Position numbers and translations under genes: made by a program. Under the pieces are notes generated by a model. It made no database searches. It was given only the letters and a program-made list of their open reading frames with translations, and had not been told where the DNA came from. A stretch of DNA of 64,000 nucleotides from a virus (lineage: Duplodnaviria > Caudoviricetes): IMG/VR virus record IMGVR_UViG_3300046318_000318, one strand, 5' to 3'. Shown here piece after piece: positions 7,391 through 56,218 of the stretch (within the stretch, counting starts at the first letter, position 1; each line of letters begins with the position of its first letter).

Positions 7391-7437
7391 AAAAAAAAAA
7401 ATCATCCCCGGCCTGTGAAGGCTAGGGGGATGATTTT
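7391..7437 (-). terminator. Cassette terminator T1 (divergent member of the repeat family)
   Basis: A10-atcatccccggcctgtgaaggctagggggatgattttt, abutting the stop codon of ORF 7437..7760. Confidence 0.85.
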
Positions 7438-7760
7438 TACTTTCCAGCAGGACAATGACCTGTAAAGTCCAGTTCATAACCTTTGCCGGGGGTAATATTC
7501 ACTGTTGGATATCTCCATCCAACAGCGCGACCATAGTGGTCGCGAAAGAAGACATGTGCCCCCAGCTGTCGCTGGGTGTTGTATCGGGTCCACTCCGACC
7601 TGTCGATCAGGTAGACGTCGGCCGTCCCGCCATCGGGGAGTGATAAGCTACACTCCCCGCTACCGTCGTCAACCCCACCCCAATCTTCGCCGTCGTCCCA
7701 CTCCTCGGCAAATGACGAGAAGAATGGAACTGTAATTTTTATGTTAGAATTTGCGTACAT
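7437..7760 (-). CDS. Cassette 1 cargo: acidic hypothetical protein
   Basis: 107 aa, GC-richer than flanks, strong AGGAG SD, preceded by a structured leader. Confidence 0.75.
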   Translation of the reverse strand: MYANSNIKITVPFFSSFAEEWDDGEDWGGVDDGSGECSLSLPDGGTADVYLIDRSEWTRYNTQRQLGAHVFFRDHYGRAVGWRYPTVNITPGKGYELDFTGHCPAGK

Positions 7761-7983: not shown

Positions 7984-8078
7984 AATGTACTCCTCAGCTG
8001 ATAGCTAGATCAAAAACAATCTATTAAACTACAGCTATACATCAAGTTAAGTATATATGACTGAAATCTTTTACAAGG
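7984..8078 (-). promoter_or_regulatory. Cassette 1 putative early promoter + structured leader + SD
   Basis: CTTGTAAAAGATTTCAGTCATATATACTTAACTTGA...AGCTGTAG-TTTAA-TAGATT..GATCTA-G-CTATCAGCT-GAGGAG; near-identical to 11971..12064. Confidence 0.85.
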
Positions 8079-11723: not shown

Positions 11724-11768
11724 AAAAAAAAATAACACCCCCGGCCTGTGAGGGCTAGGGGTGTTATT
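11724..11768 (-). terminator. Cassette terminator T2
   Basis: aataacacccccggcctgtgagggctaggggtgttatt with A-tract; identical to T6. Confidence 0.85.
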
Positions 11769-11769
11769 C

Positions 11770-11970
11770 TCACGAAAACGCCAGATAGGGTTTTCGTGAA
11801 AAGACCCGGACCCCGTCCTCGCGGACGAAACTCCAGGTTTTCCTAACCATACACTTTTTGTACCGGGTTTCCCCGGTTTTAATGCTTTTGCTCATCCGCG
11901 CAGCTGCGCGGAGAGCGTACCCCGCAGCATAAAATGCTGCGGTGGTTTCACGACGGGTCATGTGTTCCAT
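11770..11970 (-). CDS. Cassette 2 cargo: small basic hypothetical protein
   Basis: 66 aa, Arg/Lys-rich, GAGGAG SD, stop abuts T2. Confidence 0.7.
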   Translation of the reverse strand: MEHMTRRETTAAFYAAGYALRAAARMSKSIKTGETRYKKCMVRKTWSFVREDGVRVFSRKPYLAFS

Positions 11971-12113: not shown

Positions 12114-14291
12114 TTAACCGTACAGGTAAACTGCACCGTAACCAGCTTGAGCTATAGGAGTAGCTGTCTTGGTTAAACCAGGATCTCTACCCCAAGCACC
12201 CACAGCCATCTCTTTAAGATCATCAGAAAGAGATACCTCGACACCAAACTTTTCGTTGTTGCCGATAGCTGAGTCAGGGAATACACGAGCTACTTCAGTC
12301 CACATACCAGTGACATCACTCTTCTTGAAGATATAAAGCATGCCTGCATCAGTACCTTTGGTGTCTTCATATTCAGCACCTACAGCGATGGTCTTACCGT
12401 TAGGAGAAACCCACACACTTCTACCGAAATGAGAATACTGACGCTGTCCGCTAGGGGTCAATTTCTGACCTCTGACATAGGCACCGTTGATATAGTCCCA
12501 AAGCTCTACATATCCATAACCATCACTATACTGGATATTTTTAGCAGCCATTTGGTCGGTTATCCATGTATTTGTATTAGGAGCTAATACACCGCGACAA
12601 GCAGCAGCTAACAACTTACCGTCCGAAGACATGTTCTGAACAGAGTTACCTAAATGACCGTAATGATCAGAGTGCCTGGGTGTAGAACTCTTCAACGTTT
12701 GGATCAAAGTAAACTGACCAGAGCCATTGTCTTTATACACATGCAAGGCACCCATCCAAGACACAGGGTATTGAGTTGGATTTGTATATGTAGCGGACTC
12801 ATCTAAAGTATCAAAAACAGAAATGGTTCTGCCATCTCTAGATATAGATACACTACCTGTGTTCTCAAGTGTATTAGGTATAGTGAGTGTTTGGCTCAAT
12901 ACCCAATCAGAGGCTGTCTTTCTATAAACCAAAGCTCTAGCGTTAGTACCAGCTGTGTTAAAGATCCAAGGTGTGTTCCATCTCTGTTTATAAGCTGCGC
13001 CATAAAAGCTATCAGCTATAACCAATACAGCGCCATCACCAGAAATCTTCACATCTGCATCTAGGGGGTATTCTTTAAAGTTGCTATTCAGGGAAATAGT
13101 TTTGTTCAAAGACCACGTATTGGAACCTGACACTCTGTTATAGATCTCTACAGCTGTGGTGCCATCTAAGTTAGCAGATTGTGAGACAGGCGTGGAATAA
13201 GAGAAATTAGCTTGAGTAAACTCAGAACCATAGAACTTATGCTCACCCAAAGTCAACACACCACCATCATAGCTAAGAGAAGCTTTGATAGCGCCTGATG
13301 TACCGGTGGGTCTTTGTATACGCTGTACATGAGACCAGGTACCACCTGACTTCACATACATATCAGCATAGTCACCACCAGACTCATGGTTACGATTAGC
13401 AGCTAAGTTAACATCACGTTTGTTACTGGTGGTTACCATGACTTGTCCGTCACCAGACAAAACCACGTTAGCACCATAGCCCTCACCAGCAGATGCAGTA
13501 TAACCTGCTTTGCTATTAGCTGTAACTATTTGCTTCTCTGTTATGGGAAGAAAAATAGTCTTGGTGGAGAACTGAACAATATCGCTATAACCAGATGCAC
13601 CAGAGTTAACACCTGTGTGTTTAGCTCTTACATAGTAAGTGGCATTCTCAGACAAACCTGTTACAGTCCAACTGATCTTATTAGCGCTGCTATTAATAGC
13701 TTCGCCAATCAACGTGTTAAAGTTGATATCACTAGATACTTGCCAAGATGAGGAGCTGTGAGTATCTGTGCCACCCACCACATCAAAAGGAGCAGTTACA
13801 AAAGTAACATCCCCACCCAGATTGTTGGATAGATTAACAGGAGATTGAATAACAGGTTTGTTAATCAAAGTCTGACCAACAGCTATATCAAACACTCGGT
13901 CGTTGATCCTAAAGCCTGCGATGCCATTAGCACCAGGTGCTGTATAGGTGATCACATCTTCTACACGACTTACAGTACCAGTTATGGCAGAGATACTGTA
14001 ACTGGTAAATGTATCATAGTTGGTGATGGTGTAAGTAGCTACCTGATTGGAGTTCAATAGAACAGGACCTTGGATACTGATAGTATCAGCATCTATAAGG
14101 TCTATAGGTAATCTACCCAAAGCGTCTAGACCGGCGATACCCCCAGGCCGATTGATCATCGACCTGTGGATACCACCAAGATTTTGCACAGCTGTTAAGT
14201 CTGTAGTGGCGTCAGTGCCGCCTTCATTGATACCCAGGACTCTGTCCAGAGCCCCGAGGTTCGCTGAAGGTCCTTGCAAATTACGAGGCAT
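12114..14291 (-). CDS. Tail fibre/appendage protein with Fn3-like domain and C-terminal FG-GAP-like beta-propeller
   Basis: Fn3-like segment (GLSENATYYVRAKH); repeats such as SHFGRSVWVSPNGKTIAVGA and EKFGVEVSLSDD; N-terminus shared with 16649 and 53167. Confidence 0.65.
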   Translation of the reverse strand: MPRNLQGPSANLGALDRVLGINEGGTDATTDLTAVQNLGGIHRSMINRPGGIAGLDALGRLPIDLIDADTISIQGPVLLNSNQVATYTITNYDTFTSYSISAITGTVSRVEDVITYTAPGANGIAGFRINDRVFDIAVGQTLINKPVIQSPVNLSNNLGGDVTFVTAPFDVVGGTDTHSSSSWQVSSDINFNTLIGEAINSSANKISWTVTGLSENATYYVRAKHTGVNSGASGYSDIVQFSTKTIFLPITEKQIVTANSKAGYTASAGEGYGANVVLSGDGQVMVTTSNKRDVNLAANRNHESGGDYADMYVKSGGTWSHVQRIQRPTGTSGAIKASLSYDGGVLTLGEHKFYGSEFTQANFSYSTPVSQSANLDGTTAVEIYNRVSGSNTWSLNKTISLNSNFKEYPLDADVKISGDGAVLVIADSFYGAAYKQRWNTPWIFNTAGTNARALVYRKTASDWVLSQTLTIPNTLENTGSVSISRDGRTISVFDTLDESATYTNPTQYPVSWMGALHVYKDNGSGQFTLIQTLKSSTPRHSDHYGHLGNSVQNMSSDGKLLAAACRGVLAPNTNTWITDQMAAKNIQYSDGYGYVELWDYINGAYVRGQKLTPSGQRQYSHFGRSVWVSPNGKTIAVGAEYEDTKGTDAGMLYIFKKSDVTGMWTEVARVFPDSAIGNNEKFGVEVSLSDDLKEMAVGAWGRDPGLTKTATPIAQAGYGAVYLYG

Positions 14292-29315: not shown

Positions 29316-29358
29316 AAAAAAAATAACACCCTGGCCTTTTGGGCTGGGGTGTTATTTT
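29316..29358 (-). terminator. Cassette terminator T3
   Basis: aataacaccctggccttttgggctggggtgttatttt; identical to T5. Confidence 0.85.
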
Positions 29359-29363
29359 AATTC

Positions 29364-29852
29364 TTATTTACTCAGGAGTTGTTTCAACTCCGTGATGTCT
29401 TTGGCAATACCGCCAGATCCATCCCAGGAATCACCTAGGAGCTGGATCATCGACGACAACCCAACCGCCCCTGTGGGAATTCCCAACAGGGTCAGTAGAT
29501 TGTTTTGGGTAGTCTTGACAAAGACCCCCTCATTACCACTCTTGTAGCGCTCATGGACACATACGTGCCCGTATTCGCTACCTTGGACAATCAAGAGCCG
29601 ATTAGTCTCCCAATCATAGGAGACGTACATGTCTCCGTCATTAATCTTCTCATACAGGACACCATCATAGTATCCCGTACCATTTGCCCACTCTTGGCGA
29701 TAAACCAGGATTTTGTTTTCTTTAACAAGTCTTTGACAGTGTCGGTAAAACACTGTCCCTGCTTCTGTCGTCGGAATGCGACCATTATTGTACAGGGTTT
29801 CATTGCCCTCACCCCAAAAGGTGAAAACGAATTTTTCGAATGTCTGTGCCAT
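29364..29852 (-). CDS. Cassette 3 cargo: hypothetical protein
   Basis: 162 aa, GC-richer, AAGGAG SD. Confidence 0.75.
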   Translation of the reverse strand: MAQTFEKFVFTFWGEGNETLYNNGRIPTTEAGTVFYRHCQRLVKENKILVYRQEWANGTGYYDGVLYEKINDGDMYVSYDWETNRLLIVQGSEYGHVCVHERYKSGNEGVFVKTTQNNLLTLLGIPTGAVGLSSMIQLLGDSWDGSGGIAKDITELKQLLSK

Positions 29853-35151: not shown

Positions 35152-35196
35152 AAAAAAAAAATAACACCCCCGGCCTGTAAGGGCTAGGGGTGTTAA
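35152..35196 (-). terminator. Cassette terminator T4
   Basis: ataacacccccggcctgtaagggctaggggtgtta; one substitution from T2/T6. Confidence 0.85.
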
Positions 35197-35197
35197 T

Positions 35198-35223
35198 TTA
35201 CGCCTCGATCACGCTCCAGCCAT
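35198..35223 (-). pseudogene. Collapsed cargo of cassette 4 (reads MAGA-stop)
   Basis: AAGGAGATAATC-ATG GCT GGA GCG TGA TCGAGGCG TAA, then terminator immediately. Confidence 0.65.
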
Positions 35224-35316
35224 GATTATCTCCTTAACTGATAGTGTCGTAGAAAGAACGACTTAAACTACAGCGATAGCTCAAATAGAATATATGTGAT
35301 TGAAATTATTTACAAG
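35224..35316 (-). promoter_or_regulatory. Cassette 4 putative early promoter + structured leader + SD
   Basis: CTTGTAAATAATTTCAATCACATATATTC...GCTGTAG-TTTAA-GTCGT-TCTTTCT-ACGAC-A-CTATCAGT-TAAGGAG; near-identical leader to cassette 3. Confidence 0.85.
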
Positions 35317-44063: not shown

Positions 44064-44108
44064 AAAAAAAAATAACACCCTGGCCTTTTGGGCTGGGGTG
44101 TTATTTTT
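44064..44108 (-). terminator. Cassette terminator T5
   Basis: Identical to T3. Confidence 0.85.
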
Positions 44109-44109
44109 A

Positions 44110-44751
44110 TCAGCAGAGCACAGGCTGCTGAGAAGCTTTGAACTTCTCACGCATAGCTTGTACTCGCTCTTCTAACGACTCCAGAATTTCTGGATGGCCC
44201 AGAAGAGTGTCCGTCATTACCTGACGAATTTCCATCAAAGCGTAATACGCTTGTTGGAAACCAACCACAGATGCTGCGTAAGCATCTGCTTCCAGCTCAA
44301 AACGTTGAACGGATTTTGTTAATCCAGCATTTTCAAGACGGAACATATGCTGGTCTTTGAGATGGCCAAACTCATGTTCCGTGATGAACCTCAGTGTCTC
44401 TTCGGTATAGAGACCTTTCATGGTCAATACCAGATCGACCTTACCGATCGACATGGTCATCCCACCACCGAAATTTTTAACAAGCTCTGTGAGGTTTGTC
44501 ACAAAGACTTTCCCTGTTACAGGATGTCTTACCATAGTGGTCAGCCAATACCAATTTGGCATCTCGACCCACTTCACTTTTCTCCCGTTAGGGAGCTTGG
44601 CGGTCTTGCACCACCAAGTGGTGCAGCAGATGGTCAGGACAAGCCTGACCACTTGACTCTCCTTCAACCGGTCCCCGAACAGGGACCAACCGGTGGTCAA
44701 AGCCACAGCCGTGAAGAAAGTAACGCCAAGTACCAAAGAAAACTGTTCCAT
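44110..44751 (-). CDS. Cassette 5 cargo: membrane-anchored HExxH zinc metalloprotease (M48/M56-like gluzincin)
   Basis: N-terminal TM; HEFGH plus downstream ELEAD; SD spacing indicates start MEQFS at 44751. Confidence 0.7.
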   Translation of the reverse strand: MEQFSLVLGVTFFTAVALTTGWSLFGDRLKESQVVRLVLTICCTTWWCKTAKLPNGRKVKWVEMPNWYWLTTMVRHPVTGKVFVTNLTELVKNFGGGMTMSIGKVDLVLTMKGLYTEETLRFITEHEFGHLKDQHMFRLENAGLTKSVQRFELEADAYAASVVGFQQAYYALMEIRQVMTDTLLGHPEILESLEERVQAMREKFKASQQPVLC

Positions 44752-44843
44752 AACTATCTCCTTAGTCACAAGTTCGAAAGATGTTTCGATTAAACTGTAA
44801 CGATAGTCAAGTTAAGTATATGTGACCAAAATACTTTATAAGG
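44752..44843 (-). promoter_or_regulatory. Cassette 5 putative early promoter + structured leader + SD
   Basis: CTTATAAAGTATTTTGGTCACATATACTTAACTTGA...GTTACAG-TTTAA-TCGAAA-CATC-TTTCGA-A-CTTGTGAC-TAAGGAG. Confidence 0.85.
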
Positions 44844-47729: not shown

Positions 47730-48861
47730 CATTAATTAACTTCGGTGTGGTAAAACCAATCTTTGTATTTATCCTTTTTAACCCTGTGTGTCACTAAACC
47801 TTGCGATATTTTGAAATATCTAGAAGCATCAGCACATGAGTTAAAAAGAATTCCACCTGCAAATACCTTACGAGTGTTTGTTGGTGGGATACCTATTCTG
47901 TTTTCCCTAAGTTTTCTTTTTGTTTCTTCAGTATGTTTTCTATTGAAGAAAGAATTCTTAGAACCGGTTCTTAAACGTTGACGTGCTCTGATTTTTTCAA
48001 TTTGTTCTTCAGAAAGTTTACAACCTTTGTTGTAGCTATGACCTTTATGCATTAAAGATATAAGCTTTCTGGTTTCAACTGAATGTTGTCTTCCAAACAT
48101 TCCATTAGCTGAACCATTTTTACCCCAAAGGTTTTTTCTTTCTAAAACAGACATTGACGCTATATTTTTAGCTTGTGTTTTGTTTCTTCTGTCTAATATG
48201 TCATCACGTTTTGGATGATTAGATAAAGAATTGCCAAATTTAGAATTTAAACTTATATTAGCCAGTAGGTTTTTATTCAGACCTGTGTATGACTTTATTA
48301 TAAGCTTTTCCTCTAATTGAAAAGCTTCTTCCCTAGAACTACACGGAATAGAGGAAACTTTATAATCAGTTCCTTCACACCATGCTTCTTGTAAACGCAG
48401 ATTATGGTGATTGTTTCTTTTCAACGACCTAAAATGAGTTCGAAGTCTTTTCTTTAAATTTGACGTACTACCTATATAAAACACACCTGTTTTTGTTAAT
48501 GTGAGTATATAAACACAAAAATCATTACTGTTCATATAGATTCCTCGTTAGGATTACCATATAATGAACACAGCACTGCTTTACATCTCTGTAAAGATAG
48601 ATCATATCACCACCTTCAGCCTTACCTGTTAAGGGTTCCCCGTTTCGAAGCGATTCACATCGGTTCTACGTCTTTCGACTGATCGTTGAACTTTCTCCAG
48701 TTTAAAGGAGCTTAGCTGCTGATTGTCTCTACCTACTAATTTTCAAACACGTTACGTATGTGTTTTCACACTCCGCTTTGGTTTAGTAGTCTAACAAGGG
48801 TTTCCAGCAATTAGAGGAATTTTCAAATAGGTATTTCTACCTATACAGCGCTCAGTTATTA
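47730..48861 (-). ncRNA. Group I intron in thyA
   Basis: P1 CAGCGU/GCGCUG with U.G at the splice site; P10 ACUGA/UCAGU; P AAUUGCUGGAAA, Q AAUCAGCAG, R UCAACGAUCA, S GAUAUGAUCU (P7 GAUCA/UGAUC); P9 CUUUACA-GAGA-UGUAAAG; terminal G at 47730. Confidence 0.9.
47732..48535 (-). CDS. Intron-encoded GIY-YIG homing endonuclease
   Basis: CVY-x10-YIG, KKRLRTH, FQLEE, NUMOD3-like HSVETRKLIS/HTEETKRKL, C-terminal HTH. Confidence 0.9.
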   Translation of the reverse strand: MNSNDFCVYILTLTKTGVFYIGSTSNLKKRLRTHFRSLKRNNHHNLRLQEAWCEGTDYKVSSIPCSSREEAFQLEEKLIIKSYTGLNKNLLANISLNSKFGNSLSNHPKRDDILDRRNKTQAKNIASMSVLERKNLWGKNGSANGMFGRQHSVETRKLISLMHKGHSYNKGCKLSEEQIEKIRARQRLRTGSKNSFFNRKHTEETKRKLRENRIGIPPTNTRKVFAGGILFNSCADASRYFKISQGLVTHRVKKDKYKDWFYHTEVN

Positions 48862-49710
48862 ACGCTGGAACATAAGTAGGTTCAAACGCTTCTTACCACC
48901 TTCATTGAGAGCAGGTTGTACAAAGCATTGGAACATAACATGGCATGGTGCCAAAGCACCCATACCCAACAATACATTCAGATCAGGAGAAATCTTATTG
49001 TCAGGAATGAATTGTGGTAACCATGAGCTTACCACAAGACGTGAAGAATAAGGATTGTTTTTCAGTTCAGCCAGAAGAATACCTAATTGATCTACCTTAG
49101 AGACATAAGTCTTCTGAATGAAATCAGTCTCTGTGACGGGATCTGTTCCATCATCTTCTGCTTCTTTATAAGCAAGATATTCTTTATAAGCTTCTTTAAA
49201 AGCTTCTACTTTATCAGAAGGAATATCTTCGATAGGTGGTTTGTTTCTGAGAAGTTGGTGAATGTTACTCATCTCATCAGCAGGGGCATGGCGCCAGTTA
49301 AAGCCGTACAAAGGACCGATAGATCCGATACGCTCACTGATCTGTTCACGAAGTTTAGCCATGAGCATTTCATTACCGGCCATACTCTGACGATCTTCTT
49401 CTGATTCAAACTTAGACAAGAAATATTCCATGAACTTATCCACTGTTTTTTCAGTGACAGCCCAGTTATCCCAGATATGCACATTTGCTTCATTCAGCAA
49501 AGTGTTATCAATCTCACCAGCGATAAACCAAAGCAATTCTTCTTTCATACCTCGAAAGAAGATCTTACGAGTAGTGACCAAAGGAAAACCATCACTCATG
49601 TTGAATCGGACTTGTCTACCGAAGATAGATCGACGACCTACGCCGGTACGATCGGGATGATCATGTCCATTGTCACGGATATCCTTGAGGAGTTCTATAT
49701 AAGTCTTCAT
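48862..49710 (-). CDS. thyA: Thymidylate synthase exon 1
   Basis: DRTGVG, EELLWFIAG, HIWDNW, GPLYG..WR, SRLVVSSW, ALAPCH, ends MFQR. Confidence 0.92.
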
Positions 49711-50839: not shown

Positions 50840-50883
50840 AAAAAAATAACACCCCCGGCCTGTGAGGGCTAGGGGTGTTATTT
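50840..50883 (-). terminator. Cassette terminator T6
   Basis: Identical to T2. Confidence 0.85.
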
Positions 50884-50884
50884 A

Positions 50885-51283
50885 TCAAGCTTGATGTGTG
50901 ATCCAAGCTTGAAGAGCCTGACCCATGGCCAGCTCTTCAGCACGTCCTGATCTCACATCAGGGAACTTTACATGGACCATGAACCACTTGATCGTGGCTC
51001 CTTCGGGCAATGTGGTTGCCCCTTCGGGCAGTCGTGGTCCAGAATATTGACCAACAATGATTGTCTCATTGCTGGTCAGGTCCACGGTCACCCGTGCAGC
51101 GGGGATTTCCACCCCCAGCTGCTGAGAAAATACAGAAGCTGTGTCGGCATGACCGACACAGCTTTCCACCCCTACCTCCAAAAACTCCTTGACTTCAGCC
51201 GGAGTGATTTGGATCACTTTGATGTCGGCGATGAGCGCCGACACCATGTTGAGACTGAAAGCGTTGCAAATTTTAATTGCCAT
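50885..51283 (-). CDS. acrIII-1: Cassette 6 cargo: DUF1874/AcrIII-1-like cyclic oligoadenylate ring nuclease
   Basis: NAFSLNM, SCVGHADTA (catalytic GH), LGVEIPAARVTVDL, GPRLPEG, as in the STIV B116 / SIRV1 gp29 / YddF family. Confidence 0.75.
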   Translation of the reverse strand: MAIKICNAFSLNMVSALIADIKVIQITPAEVKEFLEVGVESCVGHADTASVFSQQLGVEIPAARVTVDLTSNETIIVGQYSGPRLPEGATTLPEGATIKWFMVHVKFPDVRSGRAEELAMGQALQAWITHQA

Positions 51284-51377
51284 GAGTATCCCCTTAACCA
51301 GCAGTGTTACAGATGTGTAACTTAAACCACTAGCGATATCTCAAGTTAAGTTTATGTGATTGAAATATTCTCTAAGG
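51284..51377 (-). promoter_or_regulatory. Cassette 6 putative early promoter + structured leader + SD
   Basis: CTTAGAGAATATTTCAATCACATAAACTTAACTTGA...CTAGTGG-TTTAA-GTTACA-CATC-TGTAAC-A-CTGCTGG-TTAAGGGG. Confidence 0.85.
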
Positions 51378-51380
51378 GAT

Positions 51381-51420
51381 ATAAGAGATATCCTACCCTT
51401 AAGGGTAGGATATCTCTTAT
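51381..51420. terminator. Perfect 40-bp palindrome/terminator
   Basis: ataagagatatcctaccctt|aagggtaggatatctcttat. Confidence 0.75.
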
Positions 51421-53166: not shown

Positions 53167-55125
53167 TTAAGCAAAGATATAGGCTTTGCTGTTTTTAGAC
53201 GCTATAGGTGCCACCACACTATCGCCTGAAAGAGAAACAGAAGTACCAAACTGTTTATTGGCAGCTTTGTCACTTGCAAATAAACGATTACGTTCTACCC
53301 AAGAAACTCCTACCTTACTAAAGATATAAGCTTCACCACATTCAAACATAGAAGGTATGCTTTGCTTAGGAGCACCAACAATCAAAACATTGCCTTCAAA
53401 GTTAGTCTTCATAGATAACCCAAACAGGTTACTCATCAGACCATCAGAAGCCTGTATCTTGTTAGACACGCTCCAACTAGAGCCAGATCTCACGTAGTTA
53501 TACACAGCACCAAATCTCAAAGGAGCTGAACTCTCAGTAAAGGGCTGGCCTGTTGCAGATACAAACATGCTGCTTCCATCACTGTTTATTTCTACGCACG
53601 AACCAAAACTTCCTCTGGAAATATTCTCAGCACCAGCAGGAGAAATTCTTTGCTCCAACAACCAGGACGAGGCACTAGCTACGTAGACATAAGCAGCGCC
53701 AGACTGTTGAATGCTATCGTTAGTTTCACCTGAAGATCCAAAGATGACTCTTAAACCATCGCCGGATACAGCAACTGATTGACCAGCTGAGAAAGGTGGG
53801 CTTGCGGCTATTACGCTATTAGGCAACAGTTTAATCTGTTCTTGCCAAGAAGAACCTGTGCGTTTGTACATAACGCAAGCGCCTATTTTCAAAGCACCTG
53901 AAGAAGTATGTGTTTGACCAGGCGCACCAGCTGCTAATACAGATCCATTTTCAGATAGATCTAAAGACCAACCAAAATAACTGCCTACCTGAGACTCACT
54001 AAAGGTTAACTTAGCTTGTTGGTTCCAGTTGGTTCCTGATCTTGCAAAGATGTAAACAGATCCACTGCTGTTATTGTCATAAGGACATCCCACAGCTATG
54101 GTGTTACCATCTCCGGAAATACCTACGGTGTGTCCAAACATATCGTAAGAACCACCGTCACCAGCCAATAACTTAGAAGACTGTATCCAGTTACTGCCAG
54201 ACTTGGTATAGATCAAAACAGCACCAGCGTCAAAACCATTACTGGTATCTGCAAAATTACCAAATACAACAGTATTACCATTGTCAGACACAGCAACGGA
54301 TACTCTGCTTCTATCTTCAGCCATGTAAGCTTGTATTTCTACAGTAGGTAGATAGCTGTCTTTGGTTCTGAATTGCACAGGTCTTGACCAAATGCTGTCT
54401 GTGTAACCAGAAGCTTTATATCTCACTCTTACCCAGAAGTCTGTGTTTGCTATTAAGCTTGCACTAAAACTGGTTAAGTTACTGTTAGAGTTGTAAGATG
54501 AAGCTACTATGTTAGCCAAACTAAAGTTAGAGTTCGTAGCCACTTCCCAATCAGATTGAGCATGTGTACCAGTGCCGCTATCTACTTCAAAAGGGGAAGA
54601 ATAGAATGTAACACCAGGACCTAAGCTACCAGTACCCATTTGAGGAGCCAATAGCTGGGGTTGTATAACTGCATTGCTACCACTGGCTTTAACAGTAACA
54701 TCTATAGCCCTACCGTTAATTAAAAAACCAGCTTGGCCCACTGCGCCAGGAGCTATATAAGTTATCTCACCTGGATTGGTAGTCGTATTTAAAGTCACAG
54801 TACCTGTAGGGGCTGTGACTGTATAGTCTTTATCACTGCTATAGTCTGTTATTAAGTAAGTATTGGTAGAAGAAATGACTACACTTCTTGGACCTTTAAC
54901 ACTTACAGATAACAAATAAAGAGGTAAAAGATGATTAGGTAAATTACCAGCGTTGTCCAAACGTATAGGTTTGTTGATGTTGTCTATTTCAGATAGAGGC
55001 ACACCACCCAGTTTGATCAACGCATTAGGAGCTGTAGATGCATCAGTACCACCTAAGTCGATACCTACTGTCACACCTGGATCAAAATCCAAACCAGCTC
55101 TTAAGATGCTGCGTTTCATTCCCAT
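53167..55125 (-). CDS. Tail fibre with Fn3-like domain and FG-GAP beta-propeller
   Basis: Repeats DMFGHTVGISGDG..IAVG.P...GSVYIF.R.G..W.Q..KL; N-terminal module shared with 12114 and 16649. Confidence 0.7.
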   Translation of the reverse strand: MGMKRSILRAGLDFDPGVTVGIDLGGTDASTAPNALIKLGGVPLSEIDNINKPIRLDNAGNLPNHLLPLYLLSVSVKGPRSVVISSTNTYLITDYSSDKDYTVTAPTGTVTLNTTTNPGEITYIAPGAVGQAGFLINGRAIDVTVKASGSNAVIQPQLLAPQMGTGSLGPGVTFYSSPFEVDSGTGTHAQSDWEVATNSNFSLANIVASSYNSNSNLTSFSASLIANTDFWVRVRYKASGYTDSIWSRPVQFRTKDSYLPTVEIQAYMAEDRSRVSVAVSDNGNTVVFGNFADTSNGFDAGAVLIYTKSGSNWIQSSKLLAGDGGSYDMFGHTVGISGDGNTIAVGCPYDNNSSGSVYIFARSGTNWNQQAKLTFSESQVGSYFGWSLDLSENGSVLAAGAPGQTHTSSGALKIGACVMYKRTGSSWQEQIKLLPNSVIAASPPFSAGQSVAVSGDGLRVIFGSSGETNDSIQQSGAAYVYVASASSWLLEQRISPAGAENISRGSFGSCVEINSDGSSMFVSATGQPFTESSAPLRFGAVYNYVRSGSSWSVSNKIQASDGLMSNLFGLSMKTNFEGNVLIVGAPKQSIPSMFECGEAYIFSKVGVSWVERNRLFASDKAANKQFGTSVSLSGDSVVAPIASKNSKAYIFA

Positions 55126-55135
55126 GACACTTACC

Positions 55136-56218
55136 TCAGTTAGACCATTCGTTATGACCGACGATAAACATCGTTTCAGGCGTAATGGCGATGTTGGGAC
55201 TCATCATACAACAAGCCATCATAGCTGCGATCTCATCTGTTTCAACAAAAGAACGCACTGTAATAGTGGTGGACTTAGCCAACACAGGTCCAGTAACACT
55301 TTGTTTACGCAATAAGATTCTGAACCTTTCTTCTTGTTCGCCTTCAAAACCAGGTCTTAAAGATACGTTAAAAGAAGCTCTGCCTGCTGTAATACCTAGA
55401 GGACCAGACAACATGTTAAAATCAGAAGCATCTGTCGTAACGTGTTCTATGGTCCAGAAGAGATTGGTACCGTCTGGTATGTTGGTACAAGAGATAGAAA
55501 CATTCAAGTTGTCATCATTAGACATTATAGTTTTACTATAAGTCCAAGTAACCCCATTGAAGTTAAGCTGATCTAAGGCAAACAACAATTTGTCAAACGT
55601 AACTACTTTTTCAACAGGCAAACTGTTTCTGATTTCTATTTCAGTCACAGCTTCATATCTGTTAGCCATCACCCAGTCTATCAATGCCTGGAATGCAGGT
55701 ACATCAGACAAAGTAATAGCGTTGCGTATGCGTTCAAGTGCTACAATAACAGGTTCAAATCCAACCACATCTTCCAGCATGTGTCTGTGAAGAGTTGGCG
55801 GGTATTCAAAAGGTTTATTTAAAACACTATCCCAAGGTACAGGACGATTGTCATTGATCAAAGTCTGATATAGACTCTCAACACCTTCAGCATTATGCTG
55901 AAACAATCCGCCTAGGACCTGGTAATTAATACGAACAGTAGAAGATACATCCGGTTTCTTAATGAGGATGACCTCACAAATTTCTTTACCGAATCTTAAC
56001 GTTGCTTCTTGCAACATCTGAACGCAGGAATAATCTACGTTCTTTACCAAAGGTGCGTTAGTAACAGTGTCTATAACGACCAACCCATCTGTATAGATAG
56101 GGCCGTAAGTAGGCACCACTGCTTTGACCTGTGTGTTGGCTAAAGTTTTAACTTCGCCAACGACCCTATTGTCTGGATTTAAACCAGTCGGGTCGAGAGG
56201 ATATCTTATCAGCGGCAT
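55136..56218 (-). CDS. Virion tail protein, YPLDPTG family, with C-terminal Calx-beta-like domain
   Basis: YPLDPTG..PDN.V.GE; C-terminal TGPVLAKSTTITV similar to TGPIVASKSITV in 16649. Confidence 0.65.
   Translation of the reverse strand: MPLIRYPLDPTGLNPDNRVVGEVKTLANTQVKAVVPTYGPIYTDGLVVIDTVTNAPLVKNVDYSCVQMLQEATLRFGKEICEVILIKKPDVSSTVRINYQVLGGLFQHNAEGVESLYQTLINDNRPVPWDSVLNKPFEYPPTLHRHMLEDVVGFEPVIVALERIRNAITLSDVPAFQALIDWVMANRYEAVTEIEIRNSLPVEKVVTFDKLLFALDQLNFNGVTWTYSKTIMSNDDNLNVSISCTNIPDGTNLFWTIEHVTTDASDFNMLSGPLGITAGRASFNVSLRPGFEGEQEERFRILLRKQSVTGPVLAKSTTITVRSFVETDEIAAMMACCMMSPNIAITPETMFIVGHNEWSN

Follow-up and report, generated by a model that had tools for sequence, protein, structure and literature searches.

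A predicted AcrIII-1-family ring nuclease gene in a repeated expression cassette of a phiKZ-like, probably nucleus-forming freshwater phage

We report that a 64,000-nucleotide stretch of viral DNA, IMG/VR record IMGVR_UViG_3300046318_000318 (hereafter "the window", meaning the whole stretch that was analysed), contains, at positions 50885..51283 on the minus strand, an ATG-initiated gene for a 132-residue protein of the DUF1874/AcrIII-1 family, and that this gene lies in a cassette whose elements recur in the genome of a phiKZ-like, probably nucleus-forming phage. Identification of the gene as encoding an AcrIII-1-family ring nuclease, which draws on sequence and on structural models, is as secure as computation allows. 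According to the reading that we consider probable, the protein is a homodimeric, metal-independent ring nuclease for cyclic tetra-adenylate (cA4) that removes the type III CRISPR signal in the infected cell and that is delivered by the cassette. The gene adds a member to a known family, and its setting is biologically apt and, apparently, unreported: in the literature that we could search, the presence of DUF1874/AcrIII-1 in jumbo or nucleus-forming phages is not reported as a finding, and no counter-measure to type III signalling in nucleus-forming phages is described. The dynamics of the cassettes are a secondary and more unusual observation. Defences that target DNA are considered to have little effect on nucleus-forming jumbo phages, and the best-documented exception to this immunity is RNA-guided type III CRISPR. 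An intact AcrIII-1 in a nucleus-forming phage would be the first candidate for the missing counter-move to type III, and its cassette context offers a route to further counter-defence genes in jumbo phages.

Profile, sequence and motif comparisons agree on the family. A preliminary description of this DNA had named the gene from the hallmark blocks of DUF1874 (NAFS.NM, S.VGH..TA, an Arg and RLPEG), and all of these are found in the 132-residue open reading frame (ORF): NAFSLNM at residues 7-13, SCVGHADTA at residues 41-49, R64 at the NR-equivalent position of SIRV1, and RLPEG at residues 84-88, followed by a second LPEGAT, the lid motif reading PRLPEGATTLPEGATIKW. The codon for the predicted catalytic residue, His45, is CAT at 51151-51149 on the minus strand. 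The profile search that the same description had proposed bears out the assignment: Pfam PF08960 (STIV_B116-like, formerly DUF1874) matches with 32.5 bits versus a gathering cut-off of 26 (E 9.7e-8), and the match spans profile positions 3-87 of 101 (85/101 positions). A PHROG scan of the protein returns phrog_5063 (E 8.7e-14), and phmmer against PDB sequences returns family members only, namely AFV3-109 (1.1e-5), SIRV1 gp29 (0.007), 6scf (the SIRV1 gp29 H47A/cA4 entry) and STIV B116. All 120 relatives listed carry PF08960. A search of all six-frame ORFs with a subfamily hidden Markov model finds no second DUF1874 copy in the 64-kb window.

The residues that bind and cleave cA4 in SIRV1 gp29 are, with one exception, present in the window protein. 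In the paper that describes AcrIII-1, H47 is the absolutely conserved general acid, R85 is a residue of the lid, and the contacts with cA4 in SIRV1 gp29 are made by N8, S11, N13, S49, T50, R66 and Q81 (10.1101/778746). A HMMER alignment places SIRV1 N8, S11, N13, H47, T50, R66, Q81, R85 and E88 at N7, S10, N12, H45, T48, R64, Q79, R84 and E87 of the window protein, and the catalytic His and eight of the nine cA4-contact side chains of SIRV1 gp29 are thereby kept. Across 50 aligned relatives N7, S10, H45, T48, R64, Q79, R84 and E87 are invariant and N12 is nearly so. The pairwise ratio of nonsynonymous to synonymous substitution rates (dN/dS) is 0.13-0.19 among alleles of the clade; the gene is under purifying selection, and several related contigs and samples retain it in the same slot.

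An AlphaFold2 model built from the 50-sequence alignment, with a predicted local distance difference test score (pLDDT) of 87.6, has the family fold, which is unrelated to CARF. In a Foldseek search of the PDB with this model, the top 17 matches are all AcrIII-1 or Crn2 structures, including 6scf (2.9e-8), 2x4i (template-modelling score, TM, 0.85), 2j85, 2j6b and the Csx1-Crn2 entries 8y7f/8y7g, with TM up to 0.86; the next match has an E-value of 0.66. SIRV1 gp29 (2x4i; 6scf with cA4), STIV B116 (2j85) and AFV3-109 (2j6b) share the predicted fold of the window protein (Foldseek E 3e-8 to 4e-7) together with the catalytic His, the eight of nine contacts and a ligand site at the interface of a dimer, predicted here. 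They differ from the window protein in that they come from archaeal viruses, are only 18-28% identical to it, and have a lid loop 7 residues shorter, the window lid containing the duplicated LPEGAT. The LPEGAT repeat was considered as a recent local duplication, and this was ruled out, the repeat being present throughout the bacterial and phage subfamily, including the protein of Thermoanaerobacterium phage THSA-485A. Crn2, as seen in the Marinitoga Csx1-Crn2 fusion (8y7f/8y7g), has the same domain and fold (Foldseek E 3e-5 to 4e-4), but is encoded by hosts within their type III CRISPR loci, where it tunes their own signalling, whereas the window gene stands alone between core phage genes. Prediction of a complex of two copies of the window protein gives an interaction prediction score from aligned errors (ipSAE) of 0.71, versus 0.23 for the best control, a mark reached by 20/30 solved homodimers and 1/23 monomers. 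The predicted interface is symmetric (residues 8-12, 14, 16-25, 77-79, 81 and 99-103) and includes S10, N12 and Q79. Because dimers of the family are already solved, the predicted dimer may express likeness to them rather than independent proof. Every feature of the family that can be examined in silico is found in the window protein, and catalysis itself is predicted.

The closest functional precedent is Tsac_2833 of phage THSA-485A, which is 44% identical to the window protein over 102 residues (E 7e-27, pairwise). The two proteins, both encoded by tailed phages, have in common NAFSL, GHADTA, the Arg, VxQ and RLPEGxTTLPxG. The THSA-485A gene abolished cA4-dependent but not cA6-dependent (cyclic hexa-adenylate-dependent) type III immunity in a plasmid challenge (10.1101/778746). 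It differs from the window gene in belonging to a 42-kb temperate-type phage of a thermophilic Firmicute, with cassette flanks that are not known, and in encoding a 102-residue protein that lacks a C-terminal helix. In the window protein that helix is predicted as an amphipathic extension of residues ~108-132 (50885-50960; model pLDDT 58-75). It is confined to the 131-132-residue alleles of the closest clade; relatives of 102-109 residues stop after the last beta strand.

The source of the window is an uncultured freshwater giant phage whose DNA is present in many freshwater metagenomes; INPHARED contains no near-identical DNA and no cultured close relative, the best identity of the major capsid protein (MCP) being 42%. 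The 713-residue major head protein is of the phiKZ type (phrog_3231 at 8.7e-172; PF25620 PhiKZ_MCP on a 99%-identical orthologue), and its closest named relatives are those of Burkholderia phage FLC9 (42%), Bacillus phage AgentSmith, Xanthomonas phage LucasX and Ralstonia phages RP12/RP31. Further phiKZ-like core genes in the window encode the virion proteins phrog_3004 and phrog_3293 and the helicase phrog_3213. The neighbours of the DUF1874 gene are phage genes (lysozyme-like, phrog_2072, thyA, FG-GAP fibre-like and the phiKZ-type MCP), and no cas genes are found in the window. Searched with Pfam PF25677 (Chimallin_Phikzvirus; positive control, phiKZ gp54), 5/5 named and 4/5 uncultured capsid relatives have chimallin. 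Chimallin and PF08960 are both present in G006 (57% MCP identity), and on L008, a 201-kb contig, a 74%-identical DUF1874 gene lies 2.3 kb from chimallin. We conclude that the phage is phiKZ-like and, by phylogenetic bracketing, probably nucleus-forming.

The preliminary description had proposed a survey of chimalliviruses for DUF1874, and in such a survey the family is present but rare. PF08960 is found in 2/49 chimallin-encoding IMG/VR contigs, and in 1/16 of those at least 90% complete; it is absent from FLC9, LucasX, RP31, AgentSmith and phiKZ (0/5). When the 50,697 INPHARED records are searched by tblastn with the window protein, only three distinct phages match, and none is a jumbo phage. 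Large contigs of 207, 301 and 459 kb carry DUF1874 as well, with no chimallin match. As a separate observation on these genomes, chimallin in G006 (144 kb) is split into two adjacent open frames, of 390 and 210 residues (L056/L057, at G006:C1:23370-24795), which may reflect an intron, a frameshift or a split that involves no intein.

The DUF1874 gene is preceded and followed by elements that recur at other loci in the window, all on the minus strand. A promoter-like core at 51341..51366, ATTTCAATCACATAAACTTAACTTGA, is common to six cassettes in the window and is found nowhere else in the window: a search with the 26-nt core ATTTCAATCACATAnACTTAACTTGA gives 5 matches at no more than 3 mismatches, versus 0 expected, and there is a diverged sixth copy; the 120-kb contig of a sister phage, G001, has 5 copies. 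After the core comes a leader at 51284..51340. It contains a hairpin, GUUACA...UGUAAC set within a longer stem (-16.2 kcal/mol; z -2.1, on its own weak), and a Shine-Dalgarno sequence (SD), AAGGGG, at 51295-51290, 6 nt before the ATG. A terminator repeat at 50840..50883, consisting of a 13+3 bp GC-rich hairpin and then a T-run (-24.7 kcal/mol, z -6.2), abuts the stop codon. A perfect 18-bp hairpin at 51381..51420 (-29.6 kcal/mol, z -7.8) ends the upstream gene, which encodes a 243-residue lysozyme-like protein. The DUF1874 cassette lies between two strong hairpins and is its own transcription unit, isolated by the 18-bp hairpin. The "cassette promoter" of the preliminary description stands as a promoter-like core repeated with leader, SD and terminator at six loci, but it is not sigma-70-like: no sigma-70-like site is found upstream of the DUF1874 gene, and the core is unlike TTGACA/TATAAT. 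In jumbo phages that encode RNA polymerase (RNAP), a conserved AT-rich motif can mark early operons, and middle and late promoters are not predictable (PMC7598289); by analogy, this favours the cassette core as an early promoter.

The same description had called the composition of the gene GC-rich and apparently imported. The elevation in GC is confirmed, the gene having a GC content of 0.519 versus a window gene mean of 0.413 (sd 0.049; 2.2 sd above), with 0.52-0.53 along its length versus ~0.41 for the window, and the five cassette cargos are all among the eight most GC-rich genes of the window. Import is not proven by this: as a stand-alone argument, GC richness was rejected as a sign of import, the major capsid gene having a GC content of 0.518 and the same GC at third codon positions. 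Either a foreign origin or codon usage linked to expression would fit the composition of the DUF1874 gene.

By homology, cA4 would bind at the dimer interface of the window protein and be buried there by the RLPEG lid loop (R84); two cuts, with the His45 residues of the two subunits as general acids, would then turn it into linear A2>P. Cyclic tetra-adenylate made by Cas10 upon type III recognition of phage mRNA would be removed, and cA4-activated effectors (Csm6/Csx1/Can-type and others) would stay off. For a phiKZ-like phage, with its DNA shielded by a protein shell and its mRNAs exposed in the cytoplasm, a ring nuclease would be a logical counter-measure, and the gene for it would be delivered as the cargo of a self-contained promoter-leader-SD/terminator cassette. 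Type III immunity acts on nucleus-forming phages, and cA4-activated Csm6 gave full immunity in the study of Serratia and phage PCH45. For the window gene we infer cA4 cleavage, an anti-CRISPR role, early timing, nucleus formation by the phage that carries it and the nature of the host defence; that the host has a cA4-signalling type III system is purely inferential. Taken as a whole, the preliminary description holds for the family, the intact His and contacts, the cassette and the phiKZ-like context, and does not hold in full for early expression, for the nucleus, chimallin not being in the window, for import, which is ambiguous, or for the host.

Observations of several kinds weigh against this reading. 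The first concern the phage: tblastn with phiKZ proteins, and PHROG and Pfam scans of all large ORFs, find no convincing chimallin, PhuZ, or RNAP or non-virion RNAP subunits in the 64-kb window, where a weak gp68-like match (E 0.012) lies at 34.5 kb; and the closest 120-kb relative, G001 (44% complete), has no chimallin match. The earlier phrase "probable nucleus-forming phage" is therefore borne by the phiKZ-type capsid and the chimallin of capsid relatives, and not by a chimallin gene in the window. The second concern the ligand. SIRV1 contact S49 corresponds to Asp47 in the window protein, the sole non-conserved contact, although the same Asp is present in the active THSA-485A protein; and in Serratia, the natural type III system that halts phage PCH45 uses cyclic tri-adenylate (cA3) and NucC, and cA3 is not degraded by AcrIII-1. 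That the window protein instead degrades or sequesters another cyclic oligonucleotide, such as cA3, cA6, or a signal of a cyclic-oligonucleotide-based anti-phage signalling system (CBASS) or other system, is in our judgement very unlikely. The duplicated LPEGAT lid segment is absent from the archaeal-virus structures, and the sole natural type III defence studied against a nucleus-forming phage uses cA3, both of which would fit a different ligand; but the same duplicated lid is present in the THSA-485A protein, which is specific for cA4 and not cA6 in vivo, and both the pocket of the dimer, with its two-fold symmetry, and the conserved contacts agree with those of the cA4 complex 6scf.

A further observation of this kind is that Val replaces the catalytic His in a natural allele in the same slot. 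In that allele, from a sister phage (L004:7495-7890, protein P0007), GTG stands for CAT and the other contact residues are kept; it is found on 5 contigs from several samples (Joint Genome Institute contigs of 97 kb, 12 kb, 2 kb and others). The natural Val allele in the same slot indicates that catalysis is not indispensable for keeping the DUF1874 gene, and the allele might serve as a natural sponge for cA4 or point to a further function that needs no catalysis. Extended to the window gene itself, the thought that the protein soaks up cA4 without cleaving it, or that the gene is a passenger in decay, carried by a selfish cassette and of no use to the phage, draws on this allele and on an empty sister cassette (described below), which shows that cargo is dispensable. 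We regard it as highly improbable: the window allele keeps His45 and the other catalytic and contact residues, and the dN/dS values, the retention of the slot across contigs and samples, and the presence of the gene in an RNA library all speak against decay. Rarity (2/49), variation in copy number, mosaic alleles and the His-to-Val variant point to an arms race that is local and still under way in freshwater hosts.

The remaining observations that weigh against an anti-CRISPR role concern expression. SIRV2 gp37, an active family member that is expressed in the middle or late phase, fails as an anti-CRISPR in native infection (10.1101/2023.01.10.523387); for the AcrIII-1 family, timing decides anti-CRISPR function. 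A variant allele with an unchanged His codon is represented in one freshwater metatranscriptome by contigs that tile 50889-51294 at a depth of 12-18; there is no contig on the downstream gene, and the upstream gene has only a short contig, at a depth of 5. These contigs are consistent with a separate, well-expressed DUF1874 unit, although, as assembled contigs of a variant allele, they give no ends, strand or level and may include carried-over DNA. An active cA4 ring nuclease could thus have a main benefit other than blocking type III at the onset of infection, through late expression, through binding or inhibition of a host protein (SIRV2 gp37 has been proposed to act in this way on a host lysine methyltransferase), or through late damping of cA4-triggered abortive responses. 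Native timing can abolish the activity of such an anti-CRISPR, and a second, protein-binding function has been reported (10.1101/2023.01.10.523387); in addition, the C-terminal helix of the closest clade, absent from relatives of ~100 residues, could be a protein-interaction surface, and the His-to-Val allele persists in at least five contigs. We nevertheless consider such a main benefit unlikely, in that the conserved promoter-like element of the DUF1874 gene belongs to a type by which early operons are marked in jumbo phages with an RNAP of their own, and the near-invariant ligand contacts across 50 relatives point to selection on cA4 chemistry. Removal of cA4 as an immune signal, with delivery of the gene by its cassette, remains our preferred reading.

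The six cassettes of the window are located between core genes and share one build: core, hairpin-bearing leader, AAGGAG-type SD, cargo and terminator, with flanks that are better conserved than the cargo. Other copies of the upstream element, all on the minus strand, lie at 29.9, 12.0, 44.8, 8.1 and 35.3 kb; other copies of the 43-bp terminator repeat lie at 11726-11768, 35155-35195 and 7393-7428, with partial copies at 29317-29331 and 44066-44080, on the same strand. One of these cassettes, at 35152..35316, just downstream of nrdB, is empty, consisting of promoter core, leader, SD, an ATG with a 4-codon stub, a stop and the terminator repeat. In sister phage G001 (MCP 99% identical) the corresponding slot, slot 35, holds a second DUF1874 paralogue, which has no second LPEGAT repeat; in a distant chimallin phage, G004, the order nrdA-nrdB-DUF1874 places the gene in the same position as slot 35. 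In the more distant G004 and G006, short blastn detects no cassette elements near DUF1874. The 74%-identical DUF1874 gene of L008 has the same cassette promoter and leader and a 100%-identical terminator repeat. Two side observations concern L008: another cassette, with a 121-residue cargo, lies immediately upstream of DUF1874, and a weak AcrVA2-like Pfam match lies ~8 kb upstream of it (L008:1429-2280).

The four other cargos in the window, at 7437-7760, 11770-11970, 29364-29852 and 44110-44769 on the minus strand, encode proteins of 107, 66, 162 and 219 residues and are all GC-rich; no Pfam or PHROG family is found for them except for a weak M48-peptidase-like stretch in the 219-residue protein (E 1.3e-4). 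They are candidates for accessory or counter-defence genes. In the first cassette, an extra hydrophobic ORF of ~29 codons, at ~7990-8078 on the minus strand, comes right after the shared SD and before the 107-residue cargo, which has an SD of its own.

Within the coding sequence of the DUF1874 gene, a 13-bp perfect palindrome at 51136..51164 (minus strand; -22.9 kcal/mol, z -5.0) has the His codon as its 3-nt loop. A terminator-like match at 51164-51136 is this palindrome and was not read as a terminator, its T-run not being conserved in relatives. Comparison with the equivalents in L001, L004, L008 and L013 shows that the palindrome is nearly invariant in nucleotides across diverged alleles and paralogues, even at 55-59% protein identity. 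The G001 allele in slot 51, the slot of the window gene, is a mosaic without the C-terminal helix: against the window it is 95-97% identical upstream and through codon 49 and then 60% identical, and against L008 it is 63-83% and then 93% identical. The switch point of this mosaic coincides with the palindrome, which may be a recombination hotspot, an RNA or DNA structural element, or a consequence of S-C-V-G-H-A-D-T-A being encodable by a palindrome.

The closest likeness to the cassettes is found in the promoter-early/stem-loop (PeSL) cassettes of T4-type phages, which mediate modular shuffling (PMC2839356, PMC4122927). In both, repeated modules of promoter and terminator flank small, non-essential genes between core blocks, and relatives differ at the modules (here, slot 35 and slot 51). 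PeSL promoters, however, are sigma-70-like and are read by host RNAP, whereas the window core, not being sigma-70-like, would presumably be read by a phage multisubunit RNAP; the window cassettes also have an extra structured leader, and no mini-circles are shown for them. No description of PeSLs for phiKZ-like phages is found in the literature that we could search. The window cassettes are, by analogy of build, a functional analogue of PeSLs that lies outside the PeSL set; the relation is one of analogy and not of membership because the window promoter is not sigma-70-like. We propose that the conserved flanks of the six cassettes allow gain, loss and allele exchange of cargo by recombination, the occupancy of slots differing and alleles being mosaic. 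A more far-reaching proposal, which we advance tentatively and hold to be doubtful, is that a freshwater chimallivirus lineage would have, in the six repeats, a plug-in expression system that resembles PeSLs, is driven by recombination, is transcribed by the (virion) RNAP of the phage itself and is dedicated to rapidly exchangeable counter-defence cargo. DUF1874 would be its sole recognisable passenger, present once, twice or in catalytically dead form in sister phages; the other four cargos would be anti-defence genes; and the palindrome would be an intragenic hotspot that shuffles half-genes between phages.

Among the neighbouring genes, two large FG-GAP-repeat proteins, of 652 and 725 residues, are encoded at 53167-55125 and at 12114-14291 (minus strand); the first adjoins a tail-fibre-like protein (55136-56218) and is a likely component of host recognition. 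The thyA gene is interrupted, with exon 1 at 48859-49710 and an ORF for a 267-residue GIY-YIG/I-TevI-like endonuclease at 47732-48535. A 45-nt stretch at 48680-48724 is 100% identical to part of an otherwise unrelated region of L008 (L008:15781-16356), which suggests a shared mobile intron.

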